A stretch of 64,000 nt of DNA from Candidatus Cloacimonadota bacterium. Its GTDB lineage: Bacteria; Cloacimonadota; Cloacimonadia; Cloacimonadales; JAJBBL01. Positions 2 through 53,385 of this stretch are shown piece after piece (the first letter of the stretch is position 1; each line of letters begins with the position of its first letter). The stretch is taken from the NCBI GenBank assembly GCA_019429305.1, contig JAHYIR010000002.1, positions 43,574-107,573 on the forward strand, written 5' to 3'. Made by a program: the position numbers and the translations under genes. Below the pieces are notes generated by a model, which saw only the letters and a list, made by a program, of their open reading frames with translations, had not been told where the DNA came from and made no database searches.

Positions 2-1753
2 GGTGACCTGTTAAGGATACAAAGAAACTATCAGAGAGCCGGTTTTTTGAACATCAAAATTGAGGAACCGGTTTTGATCTACAATGCTCCCGAAACAAAA
101 GTAACGATTAGATTAATTCTCGATGAAGGAGAGCGAGTAAGAGTCCGAAACATAAATTTTCGTTTCCCAGAATCTCCATCAGAAAATTTTGCAGAAGAAA
201 AGATCATTGCCTTAAAAAAAGCTTTACAGTTAAAAGAACAATCTCCTTTTACTGATGCTGTCTTCCGCGAAGATATAAAAACAGTCAGCAATTATTTCGA
301 CAGACTTGGTTATCCATTTATCAAAGTAGCTCATGATTTATTTTTAACCGAGTCTGAACAAGAAGTAGATATAACATATCTGGTTGATCCCGGTCCCAAA
401 GCTTATCTTGCTGAAATCCGATTCACCGGTTTAGATAAAATTTCGGAGCATTTACTAACCCGTATCATCAATATAAAGACCGGTGATGAATACAGCCAAA
501 GAAGACTGGAACAAACGAGAAGTCGTTTACAATCATTAGGAGTGTTTCAATTTGTTAGTGTCAATTTAAGATTAGACACGGTTAGAGAAAATGTGCCTGT
601 AGAAATTACTGTGCGTGAGAATGATACTATAACACTTAATTTCGGTATCGGTTATGAAGTTGAAATTGAAGAGATAGATAAATACTCAGATTTAATTCAA
701 GAAAGACGCTTCCGATATTTTACAGAAGTAAATAGACTGAGATTCTTGGGTGGTTTAAGAAAAGGTACCCTACTAGTTAAAAGATCTTATTTGGAGCCGA
801 TCCATATCAATTTCAGATTATATCAACCAGCTTTCCCAACAACCCTTTCTAATGTAATTCTCAATCCCTTTTATCGTCAAGAAAGAGAGCCCGGATATCG
901 GATAGAGAGGATCGGTGGCAATACGACCTTAAACTATTGGGTTTCGCAGCGAACAAGCACCTACCTAACCTATACCTATGAAGATAATAACTTGATAGAG
1001 AGTGCTGAGATAATTGAAATAAGAGGAAACAGAGAATTAAATAATGATCATATTCTGGAAGCTTTTTTTCATACAACTGGATTTTCGTTTATGGAGAACA
1101 ATGAACCTCATTTTTCAGATTTTATGGACAGAAATTTACTGGAAACTCCAAGATATTATCGTAAATCAAGTATAACCTGGGGTATATTGCGCGATTCTTC
1201 CCGACCAGTATTCTATCCTAGAAATGGGTCTTTAGTGTCTAACTCAATCACTCTTTCTGGTATAGGATTTGGCTCAGATTTCCGTTTTGTCCGTATTGTA
1301 ACAGATGGAAGAATGTATCGTGGTTTATCATCTGATTTAGTGCTCGCTTTAAGGCTAAAAGGTGGCGCTATCAAAGGTTTGGCAGAAGGCGAATATATCC
1401 CTATTGAGGATCGACTTTATGCTGGTGGATCTTATTCGGTTAGGGGCTGGACACGTTCAGATTTAGGCCCTAAGTCACCTGAAGGACAACCTTTAGGAGG
1501 TAAAAGTCTCTTAGAAGGTAGCATTGAATTAAGATATCCGTTATGGAAACAACTATCAGTTGTAGGTTTCTATGATTTTGGCAATGTTTGGGAAGATACT
1601 TTTGATCACGATTTTCAAGATCTCAGATATGCAGCCGGTGGTGGATTGCGTTTTGCAACTCCTGTCGGTCCATTTAGACTCGATATTGGAACTCCCATAG
1701 GTGAAGGTAGTAAGCCGGTGCAGGTTTTTATTAGTATTGGACAGGCATTTTAA
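2..1753 (+). CDS. tamA: Omp85/BamA-family outer-membrane protein (TamA-like), 5' end cut by window edge
   Basis: The frame is open from nt 2 (GDLLRIQRNYQRAGF precedes the tracked TTG at 47), so the gene starts off-window. POTRA-like repeats are followed by an Omp85 barrel ending ...VFISIGQAF. The stop overlaps the ATG of the TamB-like gene (TAATG at 1751-1755). Confidence 0.75.
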   Translation, partial: GDLLRIQRNYQRAGFLNIKIEEPVLIYNAPETKVTIRLILDEGERVRVRNINFRFPESPSENFAEEKIIALKKALQLKEQSPFTDAVFREDIKTVSNYFDRLGYPFIKVAHDLFLTESEQEVDITYLVDPGPKAYLAEIRFTGLDKISEHLLTRIINIKTGDEYSQRRLEQTRSRLQSLGVFQFVSVNLRLDTVRENVPVEITVRENDTITLNFGIGYEVEIEEIDKYSDLIQERRFRYFTEVNRLRFLGGLRKGTLLVKRSYLEPIHINFRLYQPAFPTTLSNVILNPFYRQEREPGYRIERIGGNTTLNYWVSQRTSTYLTYTYEDNNLIESAEIIEIRGNRELNNDHILEAFFHTTGFSFMENNEPHFSDFMDRNLLETPRYYRKSSITWGILRDSSRPVFYPRNGSLVSNSITLSGIGFGSDFRFVRIVTDGRMYRGLSSDLVLALRLKGGAIKGLAEGEYIPIEDRLYAGGSYSVRGWTRSDLGPKSPEGQPLGGKSLLEGSIELRYPLWKQLSVVGFYDFGNVWEDTFDHDFQDLRYAAGGGLRFATPVGPFRLDIGTPIGEGSKPVQVFISIGQAF

Positions 1754-4700
1754 TGATGAAAAAACTCAAAAAGCTGTTACTAATTCTACTACTATTATTA
1801 GTGATCTTCTTCTTCCTGCTTTTCTTGTTTGCTGTATTTACCCAAACTGCTCCCTTCCGCTCTTTATTAACTAAGATCATTATCAATCAGAGTGAAAAAT
1901 ACTTGGCTGGTGAACTCTCTATTGGTTCATTAGAGGGTAATTTTTATAATCACATAATAGTACGAGATATTGAGATCATTGACCAGGGTGAGCAAGTTTT
2001 CTATCTATCTGAGCTCTCTCTGTACTACCAGCTCAGACCTTTATTGAAGAAACAAGTTATTGTTACTAAAGTCCTGTTAAATGATTTAGATATCATAATT
2101 GCAGAAGAAGAGTATGGTTGGAACTGGCAAAGAATTCTCAAATTAGCACCTTTCCAAGAGATAGCCGAACAGGAAACTAAACCTGAAAAAGAGGGGCAAG
2201 AACTGGGATGGGAGATAGATGTAGAAAATATATCACTGACAAATTTCGACATAGTAATTCGTACATTGAATGAAGAAGAACAGTTCATTCCCTCTTCCAT
2301 AAACGATTTCAATTTAGAAAGTACTTTTAGCATGAAAGCTGACTTACTCAAATTTGATCTGCAAAAAACTGCGCTACAGATAAATTGGCAAAATGGATTT
2401 TCTCTCAATATCAATAACATATCATTCTTTGCTGATATGTCGGACGATGAGATAAGTTTAGCAGATTTTATACTTGATACTGACAATTTTTTATTAACGG
2501 CATCCAGCAAAACAAAAATTGACTTAACAAAACTCACTGCCGAATTAGAATTAACACTTCATAATAGTTCTGATTTTACCCGTCTCTTCCCCAATCTAAA
2601 GCAGGATACAGATTTGCGGCTCATTGTAGATCTGAGGGGCGAAGCCGAAAAGTTAGACTTAAGTCTGGCTCTACAGGATGACATGGGTAGGCTTGATCTG
2701 ACATTAGCGATGATCAATCCTCCATATCTTGATTCAGAAATGGTCCCGGAATATACTGCCAATATTAGCGTTGTTGATTTCAATCCTGCAGCATGGTTAA
2801 TCGATGATTCTTTTTATTCATTGCTCAATGGGAATATCATACTCTCGGGTAACGGATTTGATTATCTAACCGGTTTTTTTACTGTCAGCATCGATCTGTA
2901 TAATTCTGTCTTTCATGCACAAGACATTATCCGAGAACCAATATTGATCAAGGTATTTAGCTTAGATACTGAGTTAAATAACAAAGTCTTACAAACGGAT
3001 TTGCATCTATTAACCGAAGACTTTGGTTTGTTAGGTTTAATAGCCCACATGGGAGATATTGAGCATTTAAGCGATTTTCAATTAACAGGTAGAATTGAGA
3101 GTCTTGATTTGGCATTTATAAGTGCTCTTGAAGATCTGCCCAGCAATCTTAACATAACATTTGCAGTAAGTGGTAAGAACCCTGAAGAAAGACCAATTGA
3201 ATTTCAGCTGGAAGTAACCGCTTCTGAATTTGCCGGTTTCCCGATAGAGAAAGTAGAGCTCAAAGCATCTTTAATAGAAAAGGGTGTTCAAATCGATACC
3301 CTCTTTTGTAATATCGTTGAGAATGTCTTGCAGGTTAGTGGCTTTATCAGTGAAACCGAAGAGAGCAAAGCAGATTTTATACTATCTATCAACAATATAT
3401 CACCTATCTTATCCTGGATAGATGAAGAACTAATAACAAACGACTTGGAAGAAGAGAGAGACCCTTCTCTACCTCTGGCAGAAATGATTGAAACTCAAGG
3501 AGTCTTGAGTGGTAGTGTAACAGGAATTCTTGGAGAGTTATCTGTTAATGGGATTTTGAATTTAAAAGATTCCCGTTATGGCAACATATTCTCTGAAGAG
3601 ATTTATAATGAGTTTACAATAACACAAGAAGAAGATCTATTTCTCGCTCAGATAGAATTATTCTTGCGAAATGTATTAATAAATGAGATCCATCTGGAAA
3701 CTTTAACTTTAAACGGTCAATTGGATAGAGAAAAGGTCAATATTGGGTTAATTGTAAACCAATCACCTGATATTGCATTGACTTTAAACGCTGATATTTA
3801 TCAGAATGACGAGATTGAAATAGTGCTGCATCGGCTGGACCTCAACCTACTAGAAGATTTTTGGTACTTATCTGAGGATAATGCTTTTATCGGTATCAAA
3901 GGAGACACTTTTGATTTTACTGATTTCACGCTCAAGAATCAAGAGCAGGTATTTAAAATAGACGGTTTGTTATCTTTATCGGAAAGCAACAATTTCCGAC
4001 TGGTAATTGAAGAATTTAATCTATCTCCGCTACTTGAACTTTTTGAAGTTTTACCTGTCTCTTCCGGTATATTGACCATTGATTTGTCATTACTCGGTAC
4101 TATGATTAAACCCGAGTTGAATAGCGATATATATCTTACAGAGATCAGAATTCATGATCTGCCTGATCTATCAACTATTGCTTCAATGCAATACATTTCA
4201 TCAACAGAAACTCTACAAGCAGACCTTAATCTGCTACTACAGGAAGTCCCTTATGCTGACATTGTGCTCTATTTACCAATAAAACTCTCCTTAGAAGATG
4301 GTTTGAAGCTGCACGAAGATCGTAATTTCTATGTAAATCTAAGAACGAGTGACATCGCTTTAACCACTTTTGATGGTATGATCGCTGATATCAGGGGTCT
4401 TAACGGTATCTTGGAAGCAGAATTAACTATAGGTAACTTTATAAACGACATTAGAGCTATAGGATCTGTAGAGATCAGCAATGCTGGTTTTTCTTTACCT
4501 GTTATCAATACTAGATACCGAAATTTCAACCTTCTCCTTGAGCTGGATAATAACCGATTTGATCTGAAGCAGTTCAACCTCAATGCTAATCAAGGGAGAC
4601 TGAGTAGCGACGGCTATATAATACTCGGTAAAGATCTTGCAGGTGCGTCTAATGGTCTTATGGATGAAGAATTGACAGTGTTCAATTTACAGTTAAGAAC

Positions 4701-5718
4701 TGATAATTTCCAGCTCATCAATACTGCTGCCCTTGATCTTTTGATCGATAGCAGACTTACGATTGAAGGTAGTCCAGATCATCCCCTGTTTAGTGGTAGA
4801 ATAGATATTAATCGCGGAAGAATAGATATCGACAGATTGGTTGGAGACATGCTCACTGATAGCAAAGAAAAACCTTTACTGCTACAAACTAGAGAGAGAC
4901 AAACTATAAGTGAAGATGAAATAGTAACGAAAAGTCCAGCAGATAAATTTGAGATGCAAAATTTGAGAGGTGAGATTGCTGTTTCTTTCCCACGAAATAC
5001 TTGGATTAGAAGTTCTGATATGAATATCGAAATGAGTGGTGACTTGAACATAGTAGTTGATGGACCTCATATTGAGATCTTTGGTAACCTGAGTACTCTC
5101 CGTGGATATTATGTCTTTTTCGGCAAAAGATTTAATATAGAAATGGGAGAGATTGTATTTTCTGGTGGTCGGGAACTCGATCCTAGTCTTGCTTTACAGG
5201 CAATTTATAGTTTTCGTGGTCTTGATTCTACTCGCAATAGCTTACGTCTGATAGTCACCGGTTCCTTGGAAGATATGCAAATCGCTTTTGAATTAAATGA
5301 TCAACCGATTGAAGAAGCAGATGCCATCTCCTACATACTCTTTGGTCGTTCTTTTGATGAGCTGACTCAAGGTGAAAAAACGGAAGCTCAGAATCAGGCA
5401 TTAGTTGTAGGTGGCTTTCTGGCTAACAGATTAACAGATCAACTTAGCACTGTAATCGGTGAAAGTTTTCAACTCGATGTCTTAGAGTTTCGTTCAGATA
5501 CAACAAGATCTGAGATCGGATTGGAAATTGGTAAATATATAACAGATAACCTTTTTGTCAGCTATAAAAGGGATTTCAGTTTTGATAAAACTCAGGATCA
5601 GGTATTTGAAGAAATTTTAGTTGAATATGCCATTACCCGCTTTCTTTATCTTCAAGCATCGAGAAGAGAAACAAACGATTTCGGAGTGGATATTATCTGG
5701 CGTTTTCGCTGGAGATAA
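1753..5718 (+). CDS. tamB: translocation/assembly module TamB-like protein (DUF490 C-terminus)
   Basis: 1321 aa. N-terminal signal anchor (KKLLLILLLLLVIFFFLLFLFAVF), a long beta-rich body and a TamB/DUF490-type end (IGKYITDNLFVSYKRDF...GVDIIWRFRWR). Start codon is coupled to the stop of the Omp85 gene. Confidence 0.75.
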   Translation: MMKKLKKLLLILLLLLVIFFFLLFLFAVFTQTAPFRSLLTKIIINQSEKYLAGELSIGSLEGNFYNHIIVRDIEIIDQGEQVFYLSELSLYYQLRPLLKKQVIVTKVLLNDLDIIIAEEEYGWNWQRILKLAPFQEIAEQETKPEKEGQELGWEIDVENISLTNFDIVIRTLNEEEQFIPSSINDFNLESTFSMKADLLKFDLQKTALQINWQNGFSLNINNISFFADMSDDEISLADFILDTDNFLLTASSKTKIDLTKLTAELELTLHNSSDFTRLFPNLKQDTDLRLIVDLRGEAEKLDLSLALQDDMGRLDLTLAMINPPYLDSEMVPEYTANISVVDFNPAAWLIDDSFYSLLNGNIILSGNGFDYLTGFFTVSIDLYNSVFHAQDIIREPILIKVFSLDTELNNKVLQTDLHLLTEDFGLLGLIAHMGDIEHLSDFQLTGRIESLDLAFISALEDLPSNLNITFAVSGKNPEERPIEFQLEVTASEFAGFPIEKVELKASLIEKGVQIDTLFCNIVENVLQVSGFISETEESKADFILSINNISPILSWIDEELITNDLEEERDPSLPLAEMIETQGVLSGSVTGILGELSVNGILNLKDSRYGNIFSEEIYNEFTITQEEDLFLAQIELFLRNVLINEIHLETLTLNGQLDREKVNIGLIVNQSPDIALTLNADIYQNDEIEIVLHRLDLNLLEDFWYLSEDNAFIGIKGDTFDFTDFTLKNQEQVFKIDGLLSLSESNNFRLVIEEFNLSPLLELFEVLPVSSGILTIDLSLLGTMIKPELNSDIYLTEIRIHDLPDLSTIASMQYISSTETLQADLNLLLQEVPYADIVLYLPIKLSLEDGLKLHEDRNFYVNLRTSDIALTTFDGMIADIRGLNGILEAELTIGNFINDIRAIGSVEISNAGFSLPVINTRYRNFNLLLELDNNRFDLKQFNLNANQGRLSSDGYIILGKDLAGASNGLMDEELTVFNLQLRTDNFQLINTAALDLLIDSRLTIEGSPDHPLFSGRIDINRGRIDIDRLVGDMLTDSKEKPLLLQTRERQTISEDEIVTKSPADKFEMQNLRGEIAVSFPRNTWIRSSDMNIEMSGDLNIVVDGPHIEIFGNLSTLRGYYVFFGKRFNIEMGEIVFSGGRELDPSLALQAIYSFRGLDSTRNSLRLIVTGSLEDMQIAFELNDQPIEEADAISYILFGRSFDELTQGEKTEAQNQALVVGGFLANRLTDQLSTVIGESFQLDVLEFRSDTTRSEIGLEIGKYITDNLFVSYKRDFSFDKTQDQVFEEILVEYAITRFLYLQASRRETNDFGVDIIWRFRWR

Positions 5719-5722
5719 GAAC

Positions 5723-6163
5723 TTAGCTAATATCTGCTAAAAACTCTTTATTGCTTTCTATAATAGCTGATCTACCCTCTAGAGAATATTGAAAATAAAC
5801 CTTAATAGTTCTCTCATTAAAGAATAACTCAGCCAGTAAAGGCCACTCTATAACTGTGACCCCATCTTCGAGGATATCGTCAATTCCCAGGCCTAAGACA
5901 TCATTTTCATTGTGTAGACGAAATAGATCTATATGATTTATTTTAAATTCAGTAGCTTCATATTGATTGATCAAAACAAAGCTGGGACTGGTTACCAGTT
6001 CTTTAACACCCAACGCCTTGCATAAATAACGGGTGAAGAATGTCTTGCCTGTTCCTAAATCTCCATAGAGAGCAATAATATCACCTCTCTTGATAAAGGG
6101 AGAAATTCTTTCAGCAAGCTTAATTGTATCCTCTTCCCTATCGATATTAAATGCTTTCATCAT
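5723..6163 (-). CDS. tsaE: tRNA t6A37 biosynthesis ATPase TsaE (YjeE)
   Basis: 146 aa. P-loop YGDLGTGKTFFTRYLCKALGV plus VTSPSFVLINQY...HIDLFRL, the TsaE signature. Confidence 0.9.
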   Translation of the reverse strand: MMKAFNIDREEDTIKLAERISPFIKRGDIIALYGDLGTGKTFFTRYLCKALGVKELVTSPSFVLINQYEATEFKINHIDLFRLHNENDVLGLGIDDILEDGVTVIEWPLLAELFFNERTIKVYFQYSLEGRSAIIESNKEFLADIS

Positions 6164-6212
6164 TAGGACTATGTAAATCTAAAGTGTCTTTTATTAACAA
6201 AAGATAATCTAA

Positions 6213-7766
6213 TTATTTAGTTCTGCAAATTGCCAGGGGAAGAATCATCTCTTCCATAGAGATTCCACCATGCTGGAAAGTTCCGTTGAACTGCTTCTGG
6301 TATTGATGATAAGAATTAGGATACACGAAATAATAGTCGTCTTTAGCAAAGATAAAATTATCAACTATATTCTTAGCCGGTAAGCCAAAGAGATTTGGGC
6401 TTTTGGCAAATACCGCATGTCTCTCATTGGAAGTCAGATTCTTTCCTTGTTTGTATCGGACTGTTAATGTAGTCTCTTTGTCGCCAACAGCTTGGGTTGC
6501 CCTGTTAACTCGAATTGATCCGTGATCAGTACTGACAATAACTATTGCATCCTGTTTACTGATTACTTTTAACGCTTCATAGAATGATGAATGGAGAAAC
6601 CAGTGTTTCGTAAAAGCTCGTAACGCTTGCTCATTAGGAATAGTCTCCTGTAGGATCTGATCACGAGATCTATGGTGAGTAAGTAAATCGAGAAAGTTAT
6701 AAACCAGTACAATTAGTTTATCATTGTTCCAAGCTTCTATCTTTCTGATAACGAAGTTACCCTCCTCAATGTTGAATATCTTTACATATTTACTCGATGG
6801 TTCTAAATGATGACCCAAGTCGTTCAAATGAGCATCTAATAATTGATGTTCATTCCGGTTTCGGCTATTTTCCATCTCTGCTAAATCAACCCAATAAGAA
6901 GGAAATTCATTTGCTATATCAACTGGAAGTAAACCGCTGAAAAGCGAATTTCTGGAATATGGCGTGGCAGTCGGAAGAATAGAATAGTAAAGATTCAGTT
7001 TAATATCAAATAGCTCGGAAATAAAGGGTTCAATCGCATAGTATTGATCAAGACGAAGACAATCCAGGATAATAAAATAAACAGGTTTATTCTCTTTGAA
7101 TAGCGGGGTTATATATTCACTTACCACATCATAAGATAAAGCCGGTCGTTCGTCACTCTTTAACCACCGGGGATATTGTTCTTCAATATAATTACAGAAC
7201 TCGGAATTACTATTACGTTTCTCCAAAAAATGTGTTTGAGCTAAGGCGGGATCATTGATCTCATCAATTACCAAATCCCATTTACACATTTCACGATAGA
7301 TTTCTGCCCAATCATCCCAGTTAGGTTTGGCAAATAGCTTTTGGTTTATTTTTGTAGAAAACTGGGAGTATTCTTCACCAATACGATTTTGTCGTATCTC
7401 GTCTGCTTGAAAGATCTTTTTAACAGCCATAATAATCTGGTTCGGATTTACCGGCTTAATTAGGTAATCGGCTATCTGACTTGCTATCGCTTTCTCCATC
7501 AGACCTTCTTCTTCATTCTTAGTTATCATTACAACGGGCAATGAAGAATTGATAAGTTTAATCTCCTGAAGCGTACTAAGTCCATCTAAACCGGGCATCA
7601 TTTCATCGAGCAGTATCAGATCAAATTGTTCTTGCAAAATACAATCAATAGCATCTCTACCGTTAGTTACGGTTTTTACACCATAATCTCTTTCTTCCAA
7701 AAACATTATATGTGGTTTAAAATGTTCAATTTCATCGTCTACCCAAAGTATTTTAACTTTCTGCAT
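6213..7766 (-). CDS. porX: PorX-type response regulator (CheY receiver fused to PglZ/alkaline-phosphatase-superfamily domain)
   Basis: 517 aa. Receiver motifs: ILWVDDE, FDLILLDEMMPGLDG, ADYLIKPVNPNQI. PglZ-type motifs: YYSILPTATPYSRNSLFSG, VYNFLDLLTHHR, VSTDHGS, FQHGGISMEEMILP. No DNA-binding domain. Architecture and length match PorX of Bacteroidota. Confidence 0.8.
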   Translation of the reverse strand: MQKVKILWVDDEIEHFKPHIMFLEERDYGVKTVTNGRDAIDCILQEQFDLILLDEMMPGLDGLSTLQEIKLINSSLPVVMITKNEEEGLMEKAIASQIADYLIKPVNPNQIIMAVKKIFQADEIRQNRIGEEYSQFSTKINQKLFAKPNWDDWAEIYREMCKWDLVIDEINDPALAQTHFLEKRNSNSEFCNYIEEQYPRWLKSDERPALSYDVVSEYITPLFKENKPVYFIILDCLRLDQYYAIEPFISELFDIKLNLYYSILPTATPYSRNSLFSGLLPVDIANEFPSYWVDLAEMENSRNRNEHQLLDAHLNDLGHHLEPSSKYVKIFNIEEGNFVIRKIEAWNNDKLIVLVYNFLDLLTHHRSRDQILQETIPNEQALRAFTKHWFLHSSFYEALKVISKQDAIVIVSTDHGSIRVNRATQAVGDKETTLTVRYKQGKNLTSNERHAVFAKSPNLFGLPAKNIVDNFIFAKDDYYFVYPNSYHQYQKQFNGTFQHGGISMEEMILPLAICRTK

Positions 7767-7806
7767 AATTTTATCCTCTATATATAATTATTAGTAATTC
7801 AGTTTT

Positions 7807-8394
7807 TTAAGTGATCAGATCACTCTCTTTAAATTTTAGTTGCTTATCTTTGATCGTTTTCTCAATATTATTCAGATCACAGTCTTGGAAGTACAAAGCT
7901 AATTTAAACATCAATTCCTTCTGAGAACAATTGAAGAAGGTTACAAAATTCTCTACAAATTGCTCGGTAATGACATCCTTCATACTTTTTTTCTTGCTCT
8001 TTTCTTTTAAATCTTTGATAGTTTCTTTCAACTTCGTTGACTTCTCGTTCTGAGCTTTTTGTAACCATTCTTCTTGTTCTAACTGATTAGCTTTCTTTAT
8101 GATGGGTCGCAATAGATTTAATTTGTCCAAGCCAATAGTGACTAAAGCGTTTTCATCCAGATTAAGCTGCCCAACATAATACTTATAGTTGCTAACTAGT
8201 TTATTTACTAAAGAACCTGGTAAATTAAACTCGTCTTCAACGAAATCCTTGAACGACTCGTATCCATAAATTCTGAAAATCTGTTCCTTTTTCATTTCAC
8301 TAAGCAACTGTCCCAATTCCACAAAATGCTCTTCCATTTTTTCACGCATCGCTGTCAATGCTTGTCTTCTCTCTTCCAAATTCATTAATATCAA
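7807..8394 (-). CDS. hypothetical protein, helical, possible HTH-like N-terminal region and Lys/Glu-rich coiled-coil centre
   Basis: 195-aa ORF, 41 nt upstream of and co-directional with the PorX-like gene. The segment LGQLLSEMKKEQIFRIYGYESFKDFVEDEFNLPGSLVNKLVSNY resembles DUF3102/ParB-type helix-turn-helix leaders. No family was firmly recognised. The start could be the Met at 8385. Confidence 0.5.
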   Translation of the reverse strand: MILMNLEERRQALTAMREKMEEHFVELGQLLSEMKKEQIFRIYGYESFKDFVEDEFNLPGSLVNKLVSNYKYYVGQLNLDENALVTIGLDKLNLLRPIIKKANQLEQEEWLQKAQNEKSTKLKETIKDLKEKSKKKSMKDVITEQFVENFVTFFNCSQKELMFKLALYFQDCDLNNIEKTIKDKQLKFKESDLIT

Positions 8395-8451
8395 CTCCCG
8401 TATTTAAGCAGTTTAAATCTCGTCCCCTTCATATTTTAAACTCAAATATCA

Positions 8452-9264
8452 TTATTCCGTATCAGTTAAGGGATAATATATATGCTCCTTCTCAGGAAAT
8501 TTTTTATCCCTCACATCTTGTGCATATTTCATTAAGTTTTTGGTAATTATATCGGCTAAATCAATGTATTGTTTGGCAAACTTGGGCTGATAGTCTGATA
8601 ATCCGAAAAGATCATTATACACCAAAACTTGTCCATCAGTATATCTACCAGCGCCGATTCCGATAGTTATGATTTTAAGCTCATCAGTAACCTGTTTAGC
8701 CAATTTTTCCGGTATAGCTTCTAAAACAAGCATAAAGGCACCGGCTTTTTCTATTTCTATGGCTTGTTTGATAAGCCGTTCCGCCTCTTTCTCTTGTTTC
8801 GCTTGTACTTTATAACCACCAAATTTATGTATTGATTGAGGAGTTAAACCGAGATGACCTACTGCCGGAATTTCACAATCTACGATACCCTTGATCATGT
8901 CTATACGACTCGGACTTCCCCCCTCTAATTTAACCGCATCAGCTCCACCTTCTACAATTAATTTCGCTGAATTCTTCTTAGTCTCTTCTATATTTACGTG
9001 AAAACTCATATAGGGTAAATCTGCTATTATAAAAGTGTCTCCTGCGCCTTTTCTTACTGCTTTCGTATGATAGACAATATCTTCAATTGATACTCCAAGA
9101 GTGTTCTTATTTCCTTTAATAACCATACCTAAGCTATCACCGACCAAAATAATATCTATACCTGCTTTCTCGACAAGCTTAGCAGCATAATAATCATACG
9201 CTGTGATCATGGTAATTATTTCTTGTCTTTCTTTCTTGGTCTTTAACTCAAGTATCCCGATCAT
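8452..9264 (-). CDS. panB: 3-methyl-2-oxobutanoate hydroxymethyltransferase
   Basis: 270 aa. ITMITAYDYYAAKLVEKAGIDIILVGDSLGMV, ADLPYMSF and VKLEGG are PanB hallmarks. Confidence 0.9.
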   Translation of the reverse strand: MIGILELKTKKERQEIITMITAYDYYAAKLVEKAGIDIILVGDSLGMVIKGNKNTLGVSIEDIVYHTKAVRKGAGDTFIIADLPYMSFHVNIEETKKNSAKLIVEGGADAVKLEGGSPSRIDMIKGIVDCEIPAVGHLGLTPQSIHKFGGYKVQAKQEKEAERLIKQAIEIEKAGAFMLVLEAIPEKLAKQVTDELKIITIGIGAGRYTDGQVLVYNDLFGLSDYQPKFAKQYIDLADIITKNLMKYAQDVRDKKFPEKEHIYYPLTDTE

Positions 9265-9373
9265 TATTTATCCTCAACTTTTTATTTTAATTACCTTTTT
9301 GAACCGATATTTTGTCAATATAATCTTATTGTAACTTTTTATGATCAAACTACCTAAACCACTTTTTAATCTA

Positions 9374-10516
<1,143 letters not shown>

Positions 10517-10524
10517 CTACCTCG

Positions 10525-11865
10525 CTAATATGAGTTTTCAGGGATTTCAATGTTTTCTATAGTTTGTTGCTGGCTCTTTATTGCGAGATCTCGCCTGAAT
10601 AATCTGGTAATATCATTATAGAAAACAAAGATCATTAATGCTATGAGAATCATAAAACCAATTTGTTGGATCAAAGCTTGAGTCTTGAGTGGTATCGGCT
10701 TTTTGAATATTCCTTCAATAAAGTAAAAGAATATATGTCCACCATCCAGTATTGGGATTGGTAGGAGATTCATAATCATCAGAATTAAACTAATGGAAGC
10801 AACAAAATAGATTATTGCACCCCACCCCAAAGCTGTAGTTTGCTTGGACATGGCAACAATCATTACGGGTCCGCCAAGTTGGTCTTTTGCCATGATTGGC
10901 CTTGAAATCAGACGAAACAAGGCGTAGTAATTAACTACTATGAATGTAACCGTAGAAATAGCTCCATAATTTATCGATTGGAAAAAACCAAATCTTTGAA
11001 AATAACTGACCGGTTGTTTTTGAGTGATCCCGATCATTTTCTGTTCTGTATCGAATAAGATGTTCTTTTCCAATTCAATAGCAATAGTAAGAGTATCTTC
11101 CTCTCTTCTGATAGTGAGTTCGACTGTTTCTTGCTGATGATTAGCTATTAACTCTCGCATATCGTACCAACTGTCAACTTCTTGATCATCTACGGCAATA
11201 ACTAAATCATCTACCTGCAAACCTGCACGATAAGCAGGCATTCCGGGAGTTACCGAACCAACTATGGGTAACACTGCTGGCTGTATATCGGTATACCAAG
11301 TAGTGGGTTGTATATCTCTCGTTACCATTTTGATAAGTAGTTCATCCCTCAAAATAACAACTTCGTTGATATCATCTTTTCTTGTCTTCTCGGGTAACTG
11401 ACTCCAGTATTCAATATCATTATTGTTCAGAGCAACAATTTGATCCTGAGGTAATAATAGATTCTCGTACTGAGAAGATACTTTGCCAACTATTGGCTTA
11501 TGATCTTCAACTGTTCGACCAATCCAAAAAGAGAATGTAAACAACAATAAACCCAAGAGCAGATTCGCTATTGGTCCTGCAAATACAATAACAGCCCTTT
11601 GCCACCATTTCTTACCATAGAAGTCCTTATTGCTGAACTCTACTCCATCTTTTGGCTCATCTCCACTCATCTTAACATAACCACCGAGAGGAATTAAAGA
11701 TATAAGGAAATTTGTCCCTTTATATTTATATCCCAATAACTTAGGACCGAAGCCAATGGAAAACTTTTCTACTTCAACACCAAAAGAGCGAGCTGCAATA
11801 TAATGTCCAAACTCGTGAACAACTACAAGTATTCCTAGAACAATCAAGACACCTATGATAAACAA
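10525..11865 (-). CDS. rseP: RIP (site-2) zinc metalloprotease RseP
   Basis: 446 aa. HEFGHYIAA (HExxH) in TM1, a PDZ region (GMPAYRAGLQVDDLVIAVD) and LNLLPIPILDGGH in the C-terminal TM. Confidence 0.9.
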   Translation of the reverse strand: MFIIGVLIVLGILVVVHEFGHYIAARSFGVEVEKFSIGFGPKLLGYKYKGTNFLISLIPLGGYVKMSGDEPKDGVEFSNKDFYGKKWWQRAVIVFAGPIANLLLGLLLFTFSFWIGRTVEDHKPIVGKVSSQYENLLLPQDQIVALNNNDIEYWSQLPEKTRKDDINEVVILRDELLIKMVTRDIQPTTWYTDIQPAVLPIVGSVTPGMPAYRAGLQVDDLVIAVDDQEVDSWYDMRELIANHQQETVELTIRREEDTLTIAIELEKNILFDTEQKMIGITQKQPVSYFQRFGFFQSINYGAISTVTFIVVNYYALFRLISRPIMAKDQLGGPVMIVAMSKQTTALGWGAIIYFVASISLILMIMNLLPIPILDGGHIFFYFIEGIFKKPIPLKTQALIQQIGFMILIALMIFVFYNDITRLFRRDLAIKSQQQTIENIEIPENSY

Positions 11866-12069
11866 GACAATCCTCCAATATATGTTAAACTAAAATTGTT
11901 GTTCCCAAACTCTTTGCCACTGTGATAAGGTCAAGAGTTTTCTCGTATTTAAATTCTATTGAAATTTTTCTTCATAAAAAAGATTGACTTCGTATATTGA
12001 CTCGTTTTTTCTTAAATAGTTTCAATCTAAATTTATCTGTTTAAAGAAAGAATATATCGGAGGTATTAG

Positions 12070-12558
12070 ATGACAGATTTTTCAGTCAACGAGATTATTG
12101 AAATGGCAATCCAAATTGAAAAAAGTGGTTATGCTTTTTATGACGGTGCTTTACAAAGAAAAAACCTAAACGAAAAAGGAAGAGAATTATTGTTAAAACT
12201 TCGCGATCAAGAAAGACAGCATGAAATTACCTTTAATAATTTACACACTAAAGATGATTTTGAACTTTTAGACTTGGGTAGTGAACAAGAAGTCGTTAGT
12301 GATTATCTAAAATCAATCGTTAATTATAGAGTCTTTAATAATCCTAATGCAGCGATTAAGACTGTTGAACAGGCAAAAGATGAATTATCCTTGATAGAAA
12401 CTGCTATCAATTTTGAAAAGGATACTCTGCTCTATTTCCAAGGTATCAGAGATATAATAAAAGAGTCGAAAGCTAAAGATGTTTTGGAAAAAATAATCAA
12501 GGAAGAGATTTCTCACATACTCTGGCTTTCGCTATATAGAGATAAGATCATAGTTTAA
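12070..12558 (+). CDS. ferritin-like di-iron protein (rubrerythrin-family four-helix bundle, no rubredoxin domain)
   Basis: 162 aa. Two E...ExxH pairs (IQIEKSGYAFY...DQERQHE and INFEKDTLLYF...EEISHILW). GGAGG RBS 7 nt upstream of the ATG. Confidence 0.65.
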   Translation: MTDFSVNEIIEMAIQIEKSGYAFYDGALQRKNLNEKGRELLLKLRDQERQHEITFNNLHTKDDFELLDLGSEQEVVSDYLKSIVNYRVFNNPNAAIKTVEQAKDELSLIETAINFEKDTLLYFQGIRDIIKESKAKDVLEKIIKEEISHILWLSLYRDKIIV

Positions 12559-14378: not shown

Positions 14379-16782
14379 TTTATTTCATGAGGATCATTTT
14401 CTTGGTTGAGTTATATGATCCTGACTTCATTCTATAGAAGAAGATACCGCTACCGGCTTCTCTTCCCTGATCATTACGTCCATTCCAGACTACTGTATGA
14501 TAGCCCGCTTCCATATCTCCATTTACCAGTGTTCGAACTCGTTGACCCTTGACATTGTAGATCTCGATCGTTACATGAGAGAACTCTTTCAAGCTGAAAC
14601 TAATATTAGTATCAGGATTGAATGGATTCGGATAGTTGCCTCGAAGCTCAGTAACTAACGGAACTAAGATATTATCATCATCAGTGCCGACAAAAGATAT
14701 CTCTTCGGTCTCGACTGCCTCAGCTTCTCCTGATGTATATTGAGCTATTACTCCATAGACATAGGTTCCGGTCGGAACGTTAAGATCCGTGTAAGTTAAC
14801 TCTTGCAGACCTTCTACTAGTACTACATCGTTACGCATTACCTTATAACCGGTAAAGGCACGATTAGGTTCAATGTCTCTTTGAATTGAGCTTGTTCGTG
14901 TTGTTTGGCTGGTTCCTTTAGATTCACTGATCAGATCGGTTGCTCGGAATGTCATATCGCCTACACTGATATCATCTACATACCAGATATACCAGAGACC
15001 ATCATTAGTCGGTCCATCTACTGCCTGCCATGCCAACATGATCTCCTGTCCGGCATAACTTGCCAAAGATACACTCATTGGAGTATTGTAATAATTCCAA
15101 CCTCCGGTCATAGCTGATAGGTCTTGCAGCACAGTCCAATTACTACCGCCATCTGTTGATACTTTCACATAGTAATGGTCGGCATAGGTTGATCCTAAGT
15201 AACCTACAGTCCAGTATACAAGCTCTGCATTCGGAGGACATACAAACTCAGGGGTCTTTAACCATTCATCCTGATGATTGTAACTCCACCAGAGACCACA
15301 ATGATACTGTCCAATTGGACTATAATCTGCTGATGAGTAGTTATTCACTGTCCAGTAACCCGGGGTAGGACCACTGGCATCGGTATTGACTCCCGTTATT
15401 GCCCAACCAGCAGGTAATTGACCTGTCTCGAAACCGTTCTCCCAATATTCACCAAAGGTATGACCCGGTTCGTACCAGTTCAAGGTGATATTGTTGTTAT
15501 CAAAGATATCATAAGTCAGTTCGACTACTGGCAGTAACAACTCTATCAGTTCGATATCATACATGAACGTATCGTCTAAGATAGGCACACCAAAGGCCTC
15601 ATAATGCTCGAAGCCTGCTAAATGTGCTTCTATCGTATAAGTTCCACGCCAGACATTAGGAAATACTACTATACCACTTGCCGGTGATGACATGGTATAT
15701 ACATGGTTCGGATCACCATCATCATTGATTAAGGTAACTAGCGTTCCCGTAACAGGATCTCCTGAGTTGGTTGTCAAGTTAATGGTTACCAGTGAGGTCA
15801 TGCTGTGTTCCAAGGTATTGGAAAACGCAGGTGCTGACAGAACATTATTGGTGTAGATCGCCTTGATCGCATATTGGTATACACCGGCATCCAAGGTTGA
15901 CCACTCTGTATCAGTATAAGTTGTATCGGTTGGTGATGTTATCGTTCCTATCTCGGACCAGAGGTTTTCATTACCCTGATCCTGAGCTAAGAAACGATAT
16001 GCTAAATATCCCTCTAATGCTCTGGTCTCACGGTTAATTTGTGCTTGAGCTTCATATCCGATAGCTCGTTCTCTGCTCTTATAAACAGGACCATCTACCT
16101 TGATACCTCTGGGACTGCTACTACCGGTTGATAAACCGATCACTTCTCTACTAGGTCTGGAATCCATTGCTCTCGTATCTCTACTTACGGCTACTTCTTC
16201 TGCTGTACGGGTTAACTCACCATAATCATAACCTATCGCCCTGAGCAGATAGCTTACAAAGAAAGAGAAATTCTCGATCGGATCCCAAACATTTCCTGTA
16301 TAATCTCCAGTGAAGAACTGGGTATTAGGAACAAATGCCCAAGGGTCTCCTAATCCATCATCTGTTGCTAAACCCAAGAATCCGGCGTAACTGAGACCAA
16401 CCAAGAAACCATTAGGTGCATCGATAGGATCCGGTAATTCAAATACATTCCATTGCATATCAACATTGGGAACATTCATCTGGGAGAAGAGTATATCGTT
16501 ACCATTGGGCATACCTGCTGCATTCAAACCAAAGATGAACAGATTGATCGCATTGTGAGGACCACCCTCGCTGGTGGTCATCCAGGTTACTTCATGGATC
16601 TGGGCATCTCTTCTATGGACAGCTCCCAGTACGGTATTATTGGTTCCACCGGTGCTCCCTAACTGAGCTACCTGTACTCCGTCATCATATCGGAACTCAG
16701 TTAATACACCGCTACCCGGTGTGTTCCAGATCAGATCTACATTGTTCTCTGCTGTAAGTTCTGCTATTACGTTAGATACAGG
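14379..16782. repeat. copy 1 of a 2,404-bp apparently perfect direct repeat (3' cassette of the giant gene)
   Basis: Matches 20212-22615 at offset 5,833. The main-frame translation (800 aa) is identical. Three off-frame ORFs in the track are also identical (14905-15117=20738-20950, 15156-15368=20989-21201, 16453-16662=22286-22495). Confidence 0.9.
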
Positions 16783-19700
16783 GAAGGGGATTTCTGTAAC
16801 CATAACATCAAGTACTGTTACATCTTGTATTGGAATATTTGATTGAGTATAAGTAGCATAACCGGTTAAGGTTACTTCCAGATCATAATTACCCTGCAAT
16901 ACATTATTGAATTGAGCTACAGCAGGAAATGATCCAACTGCTACTTGGGTATAGACAGGACTATTACCGTCAGGATCCTGATCAAGGCAGAAAAGTGTAA
17001 CTTCAGCTCCTTCAGCACTAGTGCCATCATTAGTAGTAATATTAACGGTCACATTGGTTGTTAAATCTTTACCTACCCAGTTGGAGATAGCTGCTGCAGA
17101 AACAACATCATTAGTATGTACTGACTTCACACCATACCGATAATATCCACCATCAACAGTAGCCCAACCATTATCGGTATATGTGGTATCAGTAACTGTC
17201 GCTAATTCTACCCAGTTATCTTCATTATCCGTATCTTCATTGAGGAAACGGTAAATCCTAAATCCCTCAAGGACTCTATTAGAATCTCTGAAATTTCGAG
17301 AAGATAATTGTCCAATACTATCAATAAAGCTCTGGTCAATATTATCTGCTCTTCTTCCTTGAGGTTCTGAACCGATATATACATCATCTATATACCAACC
17401 GGCATAATTTACAACAGTAGTTGCGTAGTGTTCAAAGACAATTTCAACTTCAGATAAACCATCAAAAGCTGAAAGATCTATCACTACCTCTTGCCATTGA
17501 GTATTTGTGTAATCCCATGCCGGTCCCCAAACAATCTGACCATTTACTCTTACCTGACCATAATCAAAATTACCGAAAGAATCGTTCCAGCTCCAGAAGA
17601 TCATAGTAGCATCGGTGAAAGTAGTAAAGTCAAATGTCTGAGACAGATAACTAAAACCACCGGAATTAGTGTGATTGGTAAAAATCACAGTTCCCCATAA
17701 TCCTGTACCTGAATAAGCAAACGGTGGTGGTGTTGCGGTATCTGAACCGGAATTATACCAGTTATTAACATCATAATTGTTTGCCCATTCCCAGTCACCT
17801 ACAGGATGCCAATCTGCTGTAGCTTCCCAGCCACCATCATCATTTTCGAAATCTGAGAAGTAGTAATCAATAGCTAAAGGTGAACTCCAGATCAAATCAA
17901 CATAGGTATCATCAGGACTCTGAGTAGCAACAACATTGTAAGGTGGATAAGCGATCTCATCAACAATGATAACACCAACATCCAGATCCACTTCACCCAC
18001 TGTAACCTGACCTGTATAGGGAGCATAACCCTCTACCATTACACTGATATTGTAGGTTTGATTAGTATATACCCCGGGTATAGAAAACATCCCATTAGCG
18101 CCGGTTGTTGTGCTATAGTTTTCGTAACCGGTAAGATTTACTAGACCACCTACCAATCCTACGGTCGGTTGATCACTCCCAACTACCTGACCTGATACTG
18201 TAACGTTATCAAGCTGTACTAAATAGAAGGAGATGGTTGTAGTCTCGTCTTCTTCAACTAAAACGTCTTCTAATATCAGATCATTATAGCCAAAGATAGA
18301 TGCTTTAACATCATAAGTCCCTTCCGGTACATAAGGGAATACAAAATAACCATTATTATTGGTTACAGCGTTATAGTTGGTGCCGATTACCTCTACAGCA
18401 GCCCCTGCTAAAGGATCATTTGTGTCGCTGTTATAAACATATCCGTCTAAAACACCCATACCGGCTGTAACAAAATACAAAGTTGTATTAGGAACTCGAT
18501 TTGTCAGAGTACCAGTAGTGGGTGGATTGTCAGGAAAGTATTCCGTAGCATCAGCTTGCACATTCCTTGATCTATTGGCAAATGCTGTCACGGAATAAAA
18601 GAAATGATTCGTAGATTGATAATATTGAGTATCCATTGGTCTATTGGCTAATATTACCAGATTCGAACCACTATAAGCATAAGGATTCTGTAAAGCAATA
18701 TTAATCGTATTCTGACCAATAGGAAAATCAATTGTACCGTCAAATACTAATTGCAGCTGGGTAGCTGGTATCCAACCAGCAGATAGGTTATCAAGATCTG
18801 TCTCTCCTACCCAGATCTTTACTGGCATGTTCGGTAAATCTTGGGTAAAATTGCTATAATATGTGATCCCCGTTAACAAGCCACCAATATTGAGCTCCGA
18901 AGCCATGTAGATAGTCTGAGACATACTGTTTCTATAGAAAAAGTTGAGAGGTAAAGTGTTAGCTGTTGTTGTATCTGTTCCTATATTAACCGCTGCCGTG
19001 CCGGATGGTTGTACTGCCACATTCAAGTTCGGTGTAATATTGTTACCGGGAACTTCATCATCAGTTAACACTACCTCACCGTACAGATAAGTTGCTCCCG
19101 CCACATCAGGCGTCCAGGTAAAGACATAGTCAATAACTTGGCCTTGTTCTATTGTGGTACCGGCAGTAGAACCAAGTTCAATTCCACCCTCTTGCATCAA
19201 CTTAACAGTATAATCGGACTGAGTATTCATACCTGCATTACGAACTGCAATAGTATAATCAACCGGAATACCAACCGTCGCACTATTAGGACCTGTTAAG
19301 CTCAATGCCTGTAGGTCGTTATCAAAAGATCCTTCAATAGCTAAATGATAAATCCTCCACCAGTTGATATTCCAGGTACTTGTCCCCCAGGAACGGAAAC
19401 GTAGTTGAACGTCCTGATTTTGGAACGGTACTAATGACAATGTTAACAGTTGACCTCCATCAGCACCCCAATCAGTTCCACTGTGAGTCCATAGAACTGT
19501 TGGTGTCCCGTCAACAAGCACTGCTATCTCGAATGCCTCATCTACATAAGAATAGTAATTAACCCATTGCGTAACATGCAGATCACCCGCATTATCCGGG
19601 ATCGTTATTACTGGGGAAGTAGCCGAAAAATTATAGTTCTCGGTTGTGGGTGACCAGTAAAACTGAAGATAACCGGATGTTATGGACCAATGAGATTCTA

Positions 19701-19821
19701 AAGTCCAAGTACCCGGATCCACAGCAAAATCTTCTTCCCAAACAAAGGTCTGACCGTAAATGAAAGTAGTCATCACTAAGATCGAAAAGACTAATAACAG
19801 CTTAAAATGATTTGTTTTCAT
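14380..19821 (-). CDS. giant secreted adhesin-like protein with T9SS type-A C-terminal sorting domain
   Basis: 1813 aa with a signal peptide (LLLVFSILVMTTFIYGQ). Contains CARDB-like, carboxypeptidase-regulatory-like (GYVYNSDTNDPLAGAAVEV), FN3-like and MAM/choice-of-anchor-like modules. No catalytic motif recognised. The C-terminus NYPNPFNPDTNISF...SGIFFYRMKSG...KKMILMK is a Por-secretion-tail type domain. Confidence 0.85.
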   Translation of the reverse strand: MKTNHFKLLLVFSILVMTTFIYGQTFVWEEDFAVDPGTWTLESHWSITSGYLQFYWSPTTENYNFSATSPVITIPDNAGDLHVTQWVNYYSYVDEAFEIAVLVDGTPTVLWTHSGTDWGADGGQLLTLSLVPFQNQDVQLRFRSWGTSTWNINWWRIYHLAIEGSFDNDLQALSLTGPNSATVGIPVDYTIAVRNAGMNTQSDYTVKLMQEGGIELGSTAGTTIEQGQVIDYVFTWTPDVAGATYLYGEVVLTDDEVPGNNITPNLNVAVQPSGTAAVNIGTDTTTANTLPLNFFYRNSMSQTIYMASELNIGGLLTGITYYSNFTQDLPNMPVKIWVGETDLDNLSAGWIPATQLQLVFDGTIDFPIGQNTINIALQNPYAYSGSNLVILANRPMDTQYYQSTNHFFYSVTAFANRSRNVQADATEYFPDNPPTTGTLTNRVPNTTLYFVTAGMGVLDGYVYNSDTNDPLAGAAVEVIGTNYNAVTNNNGYFVFPYVPEGTYDVKASIFGYNDLILEDVLVEEDETTTISFYLVQLDNVTVSGQVVGSDQPTVGLVGGLVNLTGYENYSTTTGANGMFSIPGVYTNQTYNISVMVEGYAPYTGQVTVGEVDLDVGVIIVDEIAYPPYNVVATQSPDDTYVDLIWSSPLAIDYYFSDFENDDGGWEATADWHPVGDWEWANNYDVNNWYNSGSDTATPPPFAYSGTGLWGTVIFTNHTNSGGFSYLSQTFDFTTFTDATMIFWSWNDSFGNFDYGQVRVNGQIVWGPAWDYTNTQWQEVVIDLSAFDGLSEVEIVFEHYATTVVNYAGWYIDDVYIGSEPQGRRADNIDQSFIDSIGQLSSRNFRDSNRVLEGFRIYRFLNEDTDNEDNWVELATVTDTTYTDNGWATVDGGYYRYGVKSVHTNDVVSAAAISNWVGKDLTTNVTVNITTNDGTSAEGAEVTLFCLDQDPDGNSPVYTQVAVGSFPAVAQFNNVLQGNYDLEVTLTGYATYTQSNIPIQDVTVLDVMVTEIPFPVSNVIAELTAENNVDLIWNTPGSGVLTEFRYDDGVQVAQLGSTGGTNNTVLGAVHRRDAQIHEVTWMTTSEGGPHNAINLFIFGLNAAGMPNGNDILFSQMNVPNVDMQWNVFELPDPIDAPNGFLVGLSYAGFLGLATDDGLGDPWAFVPNTQFFTGDYTGNVWDPIENFSFFVSYLLRAIGYDYGELTRTAEEVAVSRDTRAMDSRPSREVIGLSTGSSSPRGIKVDGPVYKSRERAIGYEAQAQINRETRALEGYLAYRFLAQDQGNENLWSEIGTITSPTDTTYTDTEWSTLDAGVYQYAIKAIYTNNVLSAPAFSNTLEHSMTSLVTINLTTNSGDPVTGTLVTLINDDGDPNHVYTMSSPASGIVVFPNVWRGTYTIEAHLAGFEHYEAFGVPILDDTFMYDIELIELLLPVVELTYDIFDNNNITLNWYEPGHTFGEYWENGFETGQLPAGWAITGVNTDASGPTPGYWTVNNYSSADYSPIGQYHCGLWWSYNHQDEWLKTPEFVCPPNAELVYWTVGYLGSTYADHYYVKVSTDGGSNWTVLQDLSAMTGGWNYYNTPMSVSLASYAGQEIMLAWQAVDGPTNDGLWYIWYVDDISVGDMTFRATDLISESKGTSQTTRTSSIQRDIEPNRAFTGYKVMRNDVVLVEGLQELTYTDLNVPTGTYVYGVIAQYTSGEAEAVETEEISFVGTDDDNILVPLVTELRGNYPNPFNPDTNISFSLKEFSHVTIEIYNVKGQRVRTLVNGDMEAGYHTVVWNGRNDQGREAGSGIFFYRMKSGSYNSTKKMILMK

Positions 19822-50032: not shown

Positions 50033-50144
50033 GGGTTTAGGTCGCTACTCCTACCTTTTTTTATTGACAACTTTACACTATATTAAAATGATTCACCTTG
50101 TAGATACTCATTACAGATGAGTGTATCCTAAAAAAGGAGGAGAT

Positions 50145-51326: not shown

Positions 51327-51355
51327 TATAGAAGATATAGATTAAACTTATTCTT

Positions 51356-51386
51356 AAAAGCTGCTTCGACGAAGCAGCTTTTTTTT
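51356..51386 (+). terminator. rho-independent terminator
   Basis: Stem AAAAGCTGCTTC / GAAGCAGCTTTT with loop GAC; the 3' arm runs into a T8 run (51379-51386). Confidence 0.85.
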
Positions 51387-51515
51387 ACTCATTTAAATGC
51401 CTTCTTATAAAATGACAATTAATACGAAAATTTAAATAAAAATCAATTCTATCTAAAATTTCTTGACGTAATATTATAATCCTCTTTTATAGTCAAAATT
51501 TCATAGGAGTTTGAA

Positions 51516-52058: not shown

Positions 52059-52078
52059 TTAATGATCTAAATATTTCG

Positions 52079-52108
52079 AGCCCGAAGGAGAATTCGGGCT
52101 TTTTTTTC
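52079..52108 (+). terminator. rho-independent terminator
   Basis: Stem AGCCCGAA / TTCGGGCT with loop GGAGAA, followed by T8. Confidence 0.85.
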
Positions 52109-52265
52109 TTAAAGAAAGACTTCTTAAGTTAAGCAGCTTTTTTTATTTGTAACTCTACTCTTAACTAATACTTAACAATCGGTTTATTCTTACTTAAATA
52201 GTCCCTCCTATAAATAGATATAATAATAAGCTCATTTTTAATGAGTTAACTAAGAGGAGGAACAA

Positions 52266-53309: not shown

Positions 53310-53330
53310 CGTGTCTCCTCGTAGGAGAAG

Positions 53331-53360
53331 AGCCCGGAAGAAGTTCTTCCGGGCTTTTTT
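53331..53360 (+). terminator. rho-independent terminator
   Basis: Stem AGCCCGGAAGA / TCTTCCGGGCT with loop AGT, followed by TTTTTTGTTTT. Confidence 0.85.
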
Positions 53361-53385
53361 GTTTTATATGTATCGTTTAAATCTG

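Follow-up and report, generated by a model that had tools for sequence, protein, structure and literature searches.

The 64-kb stretch of DNA analysed here (the window; contig JAHYIR010000002.1 of a Candidatus Cloacimonadota bacterium) encodes on its minus strand a 517-aa protein, identical to MBW6515289.1, which bears in public databases merely the label "response regulator" and which an original prediction, made from the DNA letters alone, had called a PorX-type regulator that likely controls a type IX secretion system (T9SS). The gene, porX, stands directly upstream of tsaE in a string of six genes (Table 1). The protein had been described as an open reading frame (ORF) joining a receiver to a PglZ domain, with the motifs LLDEMMPG, TDHGS and QHGG, and all of these were present as described, the motifs lying at aa 52-59, 413-417 and 498-501, respectively. 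The receiver carries, besides the phospho-acceptor D54, the conserved residues D10, D11, T82 and K104. It is followed by a helical linker whose limits are approximate, since they were inferred and not computed, the domain description being that of PMC10951265; the alignment of the window protein to the structures 7pv7 and 8ted was near-continuous across this linker, with two single-residue gaps. The Pfam match to PglZ (PF08665) covered aa 229-422 (E = 5e-16; 59.6 bits against a cutoff of 25). The metal-binding and catalytic residues of this effector domain are D235, T268 (the nucleophile position), D360, H364, D414, H415 and H499, and its nucleotide-contact residues are R272 and N357. Scans with Pfam and NCBIfam found no DNA-binding domain in the protein, as had been claimed, and a search of the window for Rfam families and tRNAs gave no match.

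Comparison with characterised PorX proteins favoured PorX in each case. The NCBI equivalog NF052313 (T9SS response regulator signal transducer PorX) matched aa 5-517 on model positions 2-513 of 513 with 670.7 bits, the cutoff being 300. Among solved structures, full-length matches (aa 1-514) were obtained solely with crystals of PorX, namely 8ted (E = 4e-131) and 8p6f (about 4e-131) from Flavobacterium johnsoniae and 7pv7 (E = 4e-128) from Porphyromonas gingivalis; the identity of the window protein was 41% to the first PorX and 38% to the second. The defining residues of the family, as given in the paper on the P. gingivalis structure (PMC9757075), were mapped by pairwise alignment, which showed that 25 of 25 were the same as in P. 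gingivalis PorX (5/5 in the receiver, 7/7 metal or catalytic, 2/2 in nucleotide contact and 11/11 in the core fold). The receiver residues D10, D11, D54, T82 and K104 are the equivalents of P. gingivalis D14, D15, D58, T86 and K108, each kept in at least 78 of 82 PorX sequences of the FCB group (Fibrobacteres, Chlorobi and Bacteroidetes); the seven metal or catalytic residues, in the order listed above, are those of D239, T272, D361, H365, D415, H416 and H500, and R272 and N357 those of R276 and N358. The length of 517 aa fits the class of 500-530 aa reported for PorX and its orthologues (PMC9757075). The protein from P. gingivalis (PGN_1019; PDB 7PV7, 7PVA and 7PVK) has the same three-part architecture, and that from F. 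johnsoniae (Fjoh_2906; PDB 8TED and 8P6F) is the best structural relative by sequence, with the same domains and the same active site. By every available test, all of them made on sequence, the 517-aa protein is a PorX orthologue. The claim of a PorX-type regulator was thus borne out by the equivalog score, the full-length structure matches and the intact phospho-acceptor, catalytic and metal residues, and the domain and family scores behind the original observation were far above chance.

The lineage had been judged to be non-Bacteroidota, and correctly so: the host belongs to Candidatus Cloacimonadota, which the NCBI taxonomy places in the FCB group. The best 120 homologues of the window protein (88-66% identity) came from Cloacimonadota or Cloacimonetes wherever an organism was named. 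A scan with a PorX alignment over one genome per GTDB species gave 589 relatives, the best 80 of which formed the locus set for the counts of porX neighbours below. These 80 include Cloacimonadota, Latescibacterota, KSB1, Calditrichota, Eisenbacteria, Zixibacteria, Ignavibacteriota, Gemmatimonadota, Balneolaceae/Rhodothermales, Kapaibacteria, Fibrobacteraceae and Bacteroidota, and outside the home phylum their PorX was 38-46% identical to the window protein. Simple ORF calling was faulty in a few high-GC loci (such as L048 and some Eisenbacteria), where it gave spurious identities of 15-16%; the tblastn values (38-45%) are the reliable ones. In a neighbour-joining tree the Cloacimonadota PorX proteins were monophyletic and stood at about equal distance from every other FCB phylum, the window protein having 41-46% identity to each. 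Because they form a clade of their own, roughly equidistant from the other phyla, the tree fits vertical inheritance of porX within Cloacimonadota rather than borrowing from Bacteroidota. PorX has been said to be restricted to the FCB group, where it co-occurs with the T9SS, and its presence in members beyond Bacteroidota was previously reported (PMC9757075). Both the occurrence of PorX beyond Bacteroidota and its orphan state are known already, and the window protein is the expected orthologue in an FCB phylum. Three contigs labelled 'Limnocylindria' and 'Chromatiales' (L015, L036 and L044) also carry a full-length PorX followed by tsaE; mis-binning or mislabelling of FCB contigs is a likelier explanation than true occurrence outside the group.

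The most constant feature of the locus was the pairing of porX with tsaE. Among the 76 loci (of 80) with enough downstream sequence, tsaE directly followed porX on the same strand in 60. This adjacency spans more than 10 FCB phyla and was found under all the phylum labels sampled except Rhodothermales, for example in 25/38 loci of Bacteroidota, 8/9 of Ignavibacteriota, 3/3 of Eisenbacteria and 3/4 of Cloacimonadota. Other neighbours of porX were far less often kept: an HD-domain gene, the family met most often upstream, occurred in 24 loci, all of Bacteroidota, and the gene after tsaE was tsaB in only 15 of 71 loci. As judged from these gene orders, the porX-tsaE context is conserved and ancestral across the FCB superphylum. 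The original prediction had spoken of a housekeeping operon; the neighbours are as it stated, but this context is not peculiar to the window, being the conserved ancestral surroundings of porX.

The tsaE product (identical to MBW6515288.1) belongs to the UbK/YdiB/YjeE family of P-loop proteins, and its matches in PDB were the TsaE entries 6n9a, 5np9 and 9zw5. It carries the Walker A motif at G34-T41, S59-P60-S61, H77-x-D79-x-F81-R82 and E106-W107. Of the four signature motifs of the family (Walker A, SPT/S, HxDxYR and EW), it thus has Walker A, SPS and EW, while HxDxYR reads HIDLFR, with phenylalanine in place of tyrosine, as in 3 of 50 porX-linked TsaE proteins. A paper of 2026 reported ubK1 directly downstream of porX in all 81 P. 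gingivalis strains examined and showed that UbK1 phosphorylates PorX in vitro at the receiver residue Tyr79 (PMC13241743). Window TsaE has the same position and strand relative to porX as UbK1 and keeps K40/T41, D79 and E106, the counterparts of the residues required for UbK1 activity (the Lys/Thr of Walker A, the Asp of HxD and the Glu of EW); unlike UbK1, it has the Phe in HxDxYR. By analogy with UbK1 we consider this TsaE a candidate non-canonical kinase of PorX. The statement that no histidine kinase lies in the flanks was right but overlooked tsaE, which belongs to the family whose P. gingivalis member phosphorylates PorX.

The remaining flanking genes had been named as a hypothetical gene, panB and tgt, and these, like tsaE, were present as named. 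From rseP to tsaE the six genes are all on the minus strand, separated in order by 86, 109, 57, 40 and 49 nt, and a non-coding stretch of 204 nt lies upstream of rseP. It is plausible that rseP-tgt-panB-hyp-porX-tsaE is a single operon, which would then be co-transcribed. A scan of positions 5500-12200 for sigma-70 promoters and terminators gave counts equal to those in shuffled sequence and was uninformative on operon structure; that same scan placed no terminator-like site in the gaps between rseP and tsaE. The order rseP-tgt-panB-hyp-porX was kept solely in Cloacimonadota relatives. The RseP-type M50 protease at the start of the string, seen in this order only in Cloacimonadota, has a PDZ domain. 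Site-2 proteases of the RseP class free extracytoplasmic function (ECF) sigma factors from their anti-sigma factors, and a link between this protease and a SigP-like factor is conceivable. The string holding porX-tsaE also has queuosine-pathway genes in Cloacimonadota (tgt here, and queH at 8653-9189 of L086); it therefore carries genes of two distinct tRNA-modification pathways.

Table 1. Features of the porX locus and of the T9SS cargo genes in the window, with the porX-linked kinase genes of other loci
Feature	Position	Strand	Description
T9SS cargo gene	14380-19821	-	TIGR04183 32.6 bits; Pfam Por_Secre_tail
T9SS cargo gene	20213-25489	-	TIGR04183 32.6 bits; Pfam Por_Secre_tail
T9SS cargo gene	27695-30535	-	TIGR04183 31.6 bits; Pfam Por_Secre_tail
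T9SS cargo gene	54786-58772	-	TIGR04183 23.3 bits
T9SS cargo gene	58838-62782	-	TIGR04183 32.1 bits
tsaE	5723..6163	-	49 nt downstream of porX; PF02367 E 1e-33; TIGR00150 95 bits (cutoff 60.1)
porX	6213..7766	-	ATG start, 517 aa; receiver, helical linker and PglZ/alkaline-phosphatase-superfamily domain
PglZ/alkaline-phosphatase-superfamily effector domain	6216..7151	-	about aa 206-517
Helical linker	7152..7409	-	about aa 120-205; counterpart of the three-helix bundle in solved PorX structures
Receiver (CheY-like) domain	7422..7751	-	aa 6-115; Pfam PF00072, E 1.6e-22, 80.2 bits (cutoff 30.2)
Phospho-acceptor D54 of PorX	codon 7605-7607	-	within LLDEMMPG
195-aa hypothetical gene	7807..8394	-	40 nt upstream of porX; no Pfam or NCBIfam match
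panB	8452..9264	-	Pfam
tgt	9374..10438	-	Pfam
rseP/M50 site-2 protease	10525..11865	-	Pfam
porX-linked kinase	loci L007, L011-L015, L018-L021, L028, L031, L032, L048, L088, L089	same strand	upstream of the porX match

On the other side of tsaE, two genes of the plus strand converge on it: an Omp85 gene of the BamA/TamA-like type (47-1753, truncated at the start of the window) and a TamB gene of 1321 aa (1753-5718), the stop codons of TamB and tsaE being 4 nt apart. At the Cloacimonadota locus L001, whose PorX is 76% identical to that of the window, an ABC-3 permease gene and not tsaE lies downstream of porX, followed by genes for a diguanylate cyclase with cyclic-nucleotide-binding (cNMP) and GGDEF domains and for a GAF-HD-GYP-type phosphodiesterase (L001, 12639-15059). 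This arrangement is worth recording because PorX binds pGpG, as seen in a crystal complex, and cleaves short oligonucleotides.

The gene immediately upstream of porX encodes a 195-aa protein with 55 homologues, each of which, where it carried an organism name, came from Cloacimonadota. The order panB-hyp-porX was retained in L001, L002, L006, L086 and L087, and panB-hyp-porX-tsaE was kept in relatives down to 46% identity. A Mu-like prophage (L085) carries a paralogue, 44% identical, in its early region (10001-10624), and the family matched phrog_17202, of unknown function, with an E value of 2.6e-8. The AlphaFold2 model of the protein is all-helical and of fair confidence (pLDDT 82.6); it resembled uncharacterised phage proteins in BFVD (E down to 7e-5) and gave no match among solved structures. 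The 195-aa gene is probably a domesticated phage gene, and any role of its product with PorX is a matter of speculation.

The protein had also been called an orphan. The window held no HisKA, HATPase_c or sigma-factor domain in its non-overlapping ORFs of at least 110 aa, which agrees with that description; being an orphan does not set this PorX apart, as in P. gingivalis, too, porX and porY are orphan genes that lie apart from each other (PMC11320123, PMC9757075). Kinases near porX in the other loci were identified by a Pfam census of the neighbours, followed by BLAST clustering and tblastn. The census of upstream neighbours found a histidine-kinase ATPase domain in 9 loci, and the subsequent comparisons showed that 14 loci carry, upstream of porX and on its strand, a membrane histidine kinase of one and the same family. 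The kinase gene is directly adjacent to porX in 11 of them and 0.9-5.5 kb upstream in L014, L015 and L032. Its hosts are Latescibacterota, Eisenbacteria, Zixibacteria, Ignavibacteriales, Gemmatimonadota and Fibrobacteraceae. Members of the family are predicted to cross the membrane twice and have a periplasmic segment and an H-box with ETAHQLGTP, an architecture that was read from the sequences by eye and not computed. On two large contigs, one of which is a complete Zixibacteria chromosome, the genes form a tightly packed block, serS-HK-porX-tsaE-tsaB-GNAT, where HK is the histidine kinase.

This family was not found in the Cloacimonadota or Bacteroidota loci examined or in the window, against which nine porX-linked kinases from other phyla gave only noise by tblastn (best E 0.076). 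An NCBIfam scan of the kinases gave no PorY-named model among the matches listed, the best being AtoS/ZraS-like and below cutoff. A database search with a profile of the kinases (A5) returned close relatives only, for example from Zixibacteria and Eisenbacteria, and was uninformative on unlinked copies in Cloacimonadota or Bacteroidota (PorY). The phosphorylation partner of PorX is disputed, because the phenotypes of the porY and porX mutants of P. gingivalis barely overlap; on its position in these loci, the family described here may represent the original cognate kinase of PorX.

The five genes with T9SS tails claimed for the window were all recovered: with the TIGR04183 model of the type-A sorting domain (cutoff 23 bits), five large proteins scored at or above the cutoff. 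The scant literature on T9SS in Cloacimonadota states that the system 'may also be present', on the strength of proteins bearing the C-terminal domain (PMC11285876, PMC8542988). The two giant tandem cargo genes (14380-19821 and 20213-25489) are 97% identical in their C-terminal parts over an 836-aa alignment, most of it identical, and about 44% identical in their N-terminal halves, which suggests a recent gene conversion or duplication, or else a collapsed or duplicated repeat in the assembly of the metagenome-assembled genome. Beside the cargo genes, four genes for porin-like or beta-barrel outer-membrane proteins (DESULF_POR1-like, OMP_b-brl, Porin_O_P-like and PopA-like) occupy 50121-54618; none matched the models of T9SS components. 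The last cargo gene is adjoined, at the edge of the window, by an IS4/IS701-family DDE transposase gene (62876-63982, minus strand).

Orthology and the cargo genes make PorX the predicted regulator of a T9SS in this host. The steps would be those described for the characterised orthologues (PMC9757075, PMC11320123, PMC10951265). PorX would dimerise once D54 is phosphorylated, whether by a histidine kinase or by acetyl phosphate, and the dimer would be the active form of a zinc-dependent phosphodiesterase acting on short cyclic or linear oligonucleotides. PorX would also act by binding proteins and not DNA, its predicted targets being a SigP-type ECF sigma factor and the PorL/GldL motor, the latter in its cytoplasmic part, and expression or activity of the T9SS would be raised as a result. 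The TsaE product would probably supply a second phosphorylation input, of the Ser/Thr/Tyr type, as UbK1 does in P. gingivalis. The authors of PMC9757075 used E. coli RssB as a working analogy, both receiver proteins binding a sigma factor and not DNA; the output domain of RssB is PP2C-like and inactive, in contrast to the active PglZ domain of PorX, its effect on the sigma factor is the opposite, and the two effector domains are not homologous.

Several observations weigh against this picture. Every functional inference drawn here rests on orthologues at 38-41% identity. The probe residues of the dimer interface differ, being R125, A384 and H388 in the window protein and I129, S385 and S389 in P. 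gingivalis. The target of UbK1, Y79, is Ser75 in window PorX and, as read by eye from the alignment, Ala in F. johnsoniae; Tyr occurs at this position in 0 of 82 FCB PorX sequences. The Y79A mutant of P. gingivalis PorX showed no secretion phenotype, gingipain secretion being unaffected, and the UbK1-PorX link was considered possibly species-specific because Y79 is poorly conserved (PMC13241743). Since Tyr79 is absent from the 82 sequences, the porX-tsaE pairing, if functional, cannot depend on it. The PorX of F. johnsoniae, which interacts with GldL, has modest effects on secretion according to the summary given in PMC13241743; strong control of a T9SS is therefore not to be assumed in a distant phylum. 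Finally, neither T9SS core genes nor a PorY-like kinase or an ECF sigma factor turned up within the 64 kb; the PorY, SigP and PorL genes are likewise unlinked to porX in P. gingivalis. Like P. gingivalis porX, the window gene has no adjacent histidine kinase and is immediately followed by tsaE/ubK; unlike it, the window gene is found in a Cloacimonadota host and is preceded by the phage-related gene and then by panB, tgt and rseP. On the whole we think it likely that the 517-aa protein is best described as a Candidatus Cloacimonadota orthologue of PorX, and that the function predicted from the characterised orthologues extends to it.

The alternative that survives best accepts the protein as a true PorX and places its main role elsewhere, in a module with TsaE, and ancestrally with TsaB, that would link oligonucleotide or nanoRNA turnover and receiver signalling to the t6A (N6-threonylcarbamoyladenosine) and translation machinery, with T9SS regulation a lineage-specific addition best seen in P. 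gingivalis. The adjacency of porX and tsaE is more frequent than that of tsaE and tsaB, though TsaE and TsaB share one complex, and the tight block in Zixibacteria, the presence of another tRNA-modification gene, tgt, in the window operon and that of queH at the equivalent position in one relative all point the same way. So does the report that both the phosphodiesterase activity and Y79 phosphorylation are dispensable for gingipain secretion, whose authors suggest that PorX has roles beyond the T9SS (PMC13241743). The distribution of PorX, which is reported to be confined to the FCB group and to co-occur with the T9SS (PMC9757075), would not be explained by a pure t6A-linked role, however, TsaE being universal, and deletion of porX in P. 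gingivalis abolishes T9SS function; gene order may, moreover, stay conserved without functional coupling. On balance we hold this alternative to be unlikely.

Much less probable still is that the protein belongs, as its regulator half, to an ordinary two-component operon with an adjacent kinase, or that it is the inactive remnant of a pseudo-enzyme. The kinase upstream of porX in the six other FCB lineages is what such an operon would look like, but the family is missing from the window and from every Cloacimonadota locus examined, the upstream slot being taken by the unrelated helical 195-aa protein, and the catalytic residues, which a remnant might have lost, are all intact. We rejected, as having next to no chance of being correct, identification as a PglZ protein of BREX-type (bacteriophage exclusion) phage defence that happens to bear a receiver domain: the PglZ fold and the metal-binding residues are shared, BREX-3 PglZ is the closest non-PorX relative of PorX (PMC9757075) and its model ranked second in NCBIfam (E = 1.3e-20), but its 73.2 bits are below the cutoff of 250 and about 600 bits behind the PorX equivalog, BREX PglZ proteins lack a receiver and have at least 600 aa as opposed to 517 (PMC9757075), and the neighbours tsaE, panB, tgt and rseP include no brx or pgl gene and no BREX-named family, save for a sub-threshold match of TsaE to BrxD.

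Returning to the protein as a PorX orthologue, the comparative results can be drawn together in a joint reading, which we put forward tentatively and would not call probable. The porX-tsaE(ubK) pair would be ancestral to the FCB group and was preceded, in at least six non-Bacteroidota lineages, by one kinase, in the order HK-porX-tsaE-tsaB; PorX would have begun as an ordinary two-component regulator in a t6A operon, with that kinase family as the best candidate for its cognate kinase. The coupling of PorX with TsaE/UbK would be functional throughout the superphylum by a route other than Tyr79. Cloacimonadota would have lost the linked kinase and fixed in its place a domesticated protein of a Mu-like phage, which might serve as a lineage-specific adaptor.

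The main gains of the comparison are the superphylum-wide porX-tsaE/ubK pair, the porX-linked kinase family and the probably phage-derived gene found in that slot in Cloacimonadota. The link between UbK1 and PorX, which had been reported from P. gingivalis strains only, is now backed by the conservation of the gene pair in more than 10 phyla, and the kinase family upstream of porX in six FCB lineages is a concrete candidate for the PorX kinase. Cloacimonadota, a phylum most of which is uncultured, inhabit anaerobic digesters and anoxic sediments. For these bacteria, the assignment as PorX sharpens the public label of the protein and adds evidence for a regulated T9SS that would handle their large surface proteins.

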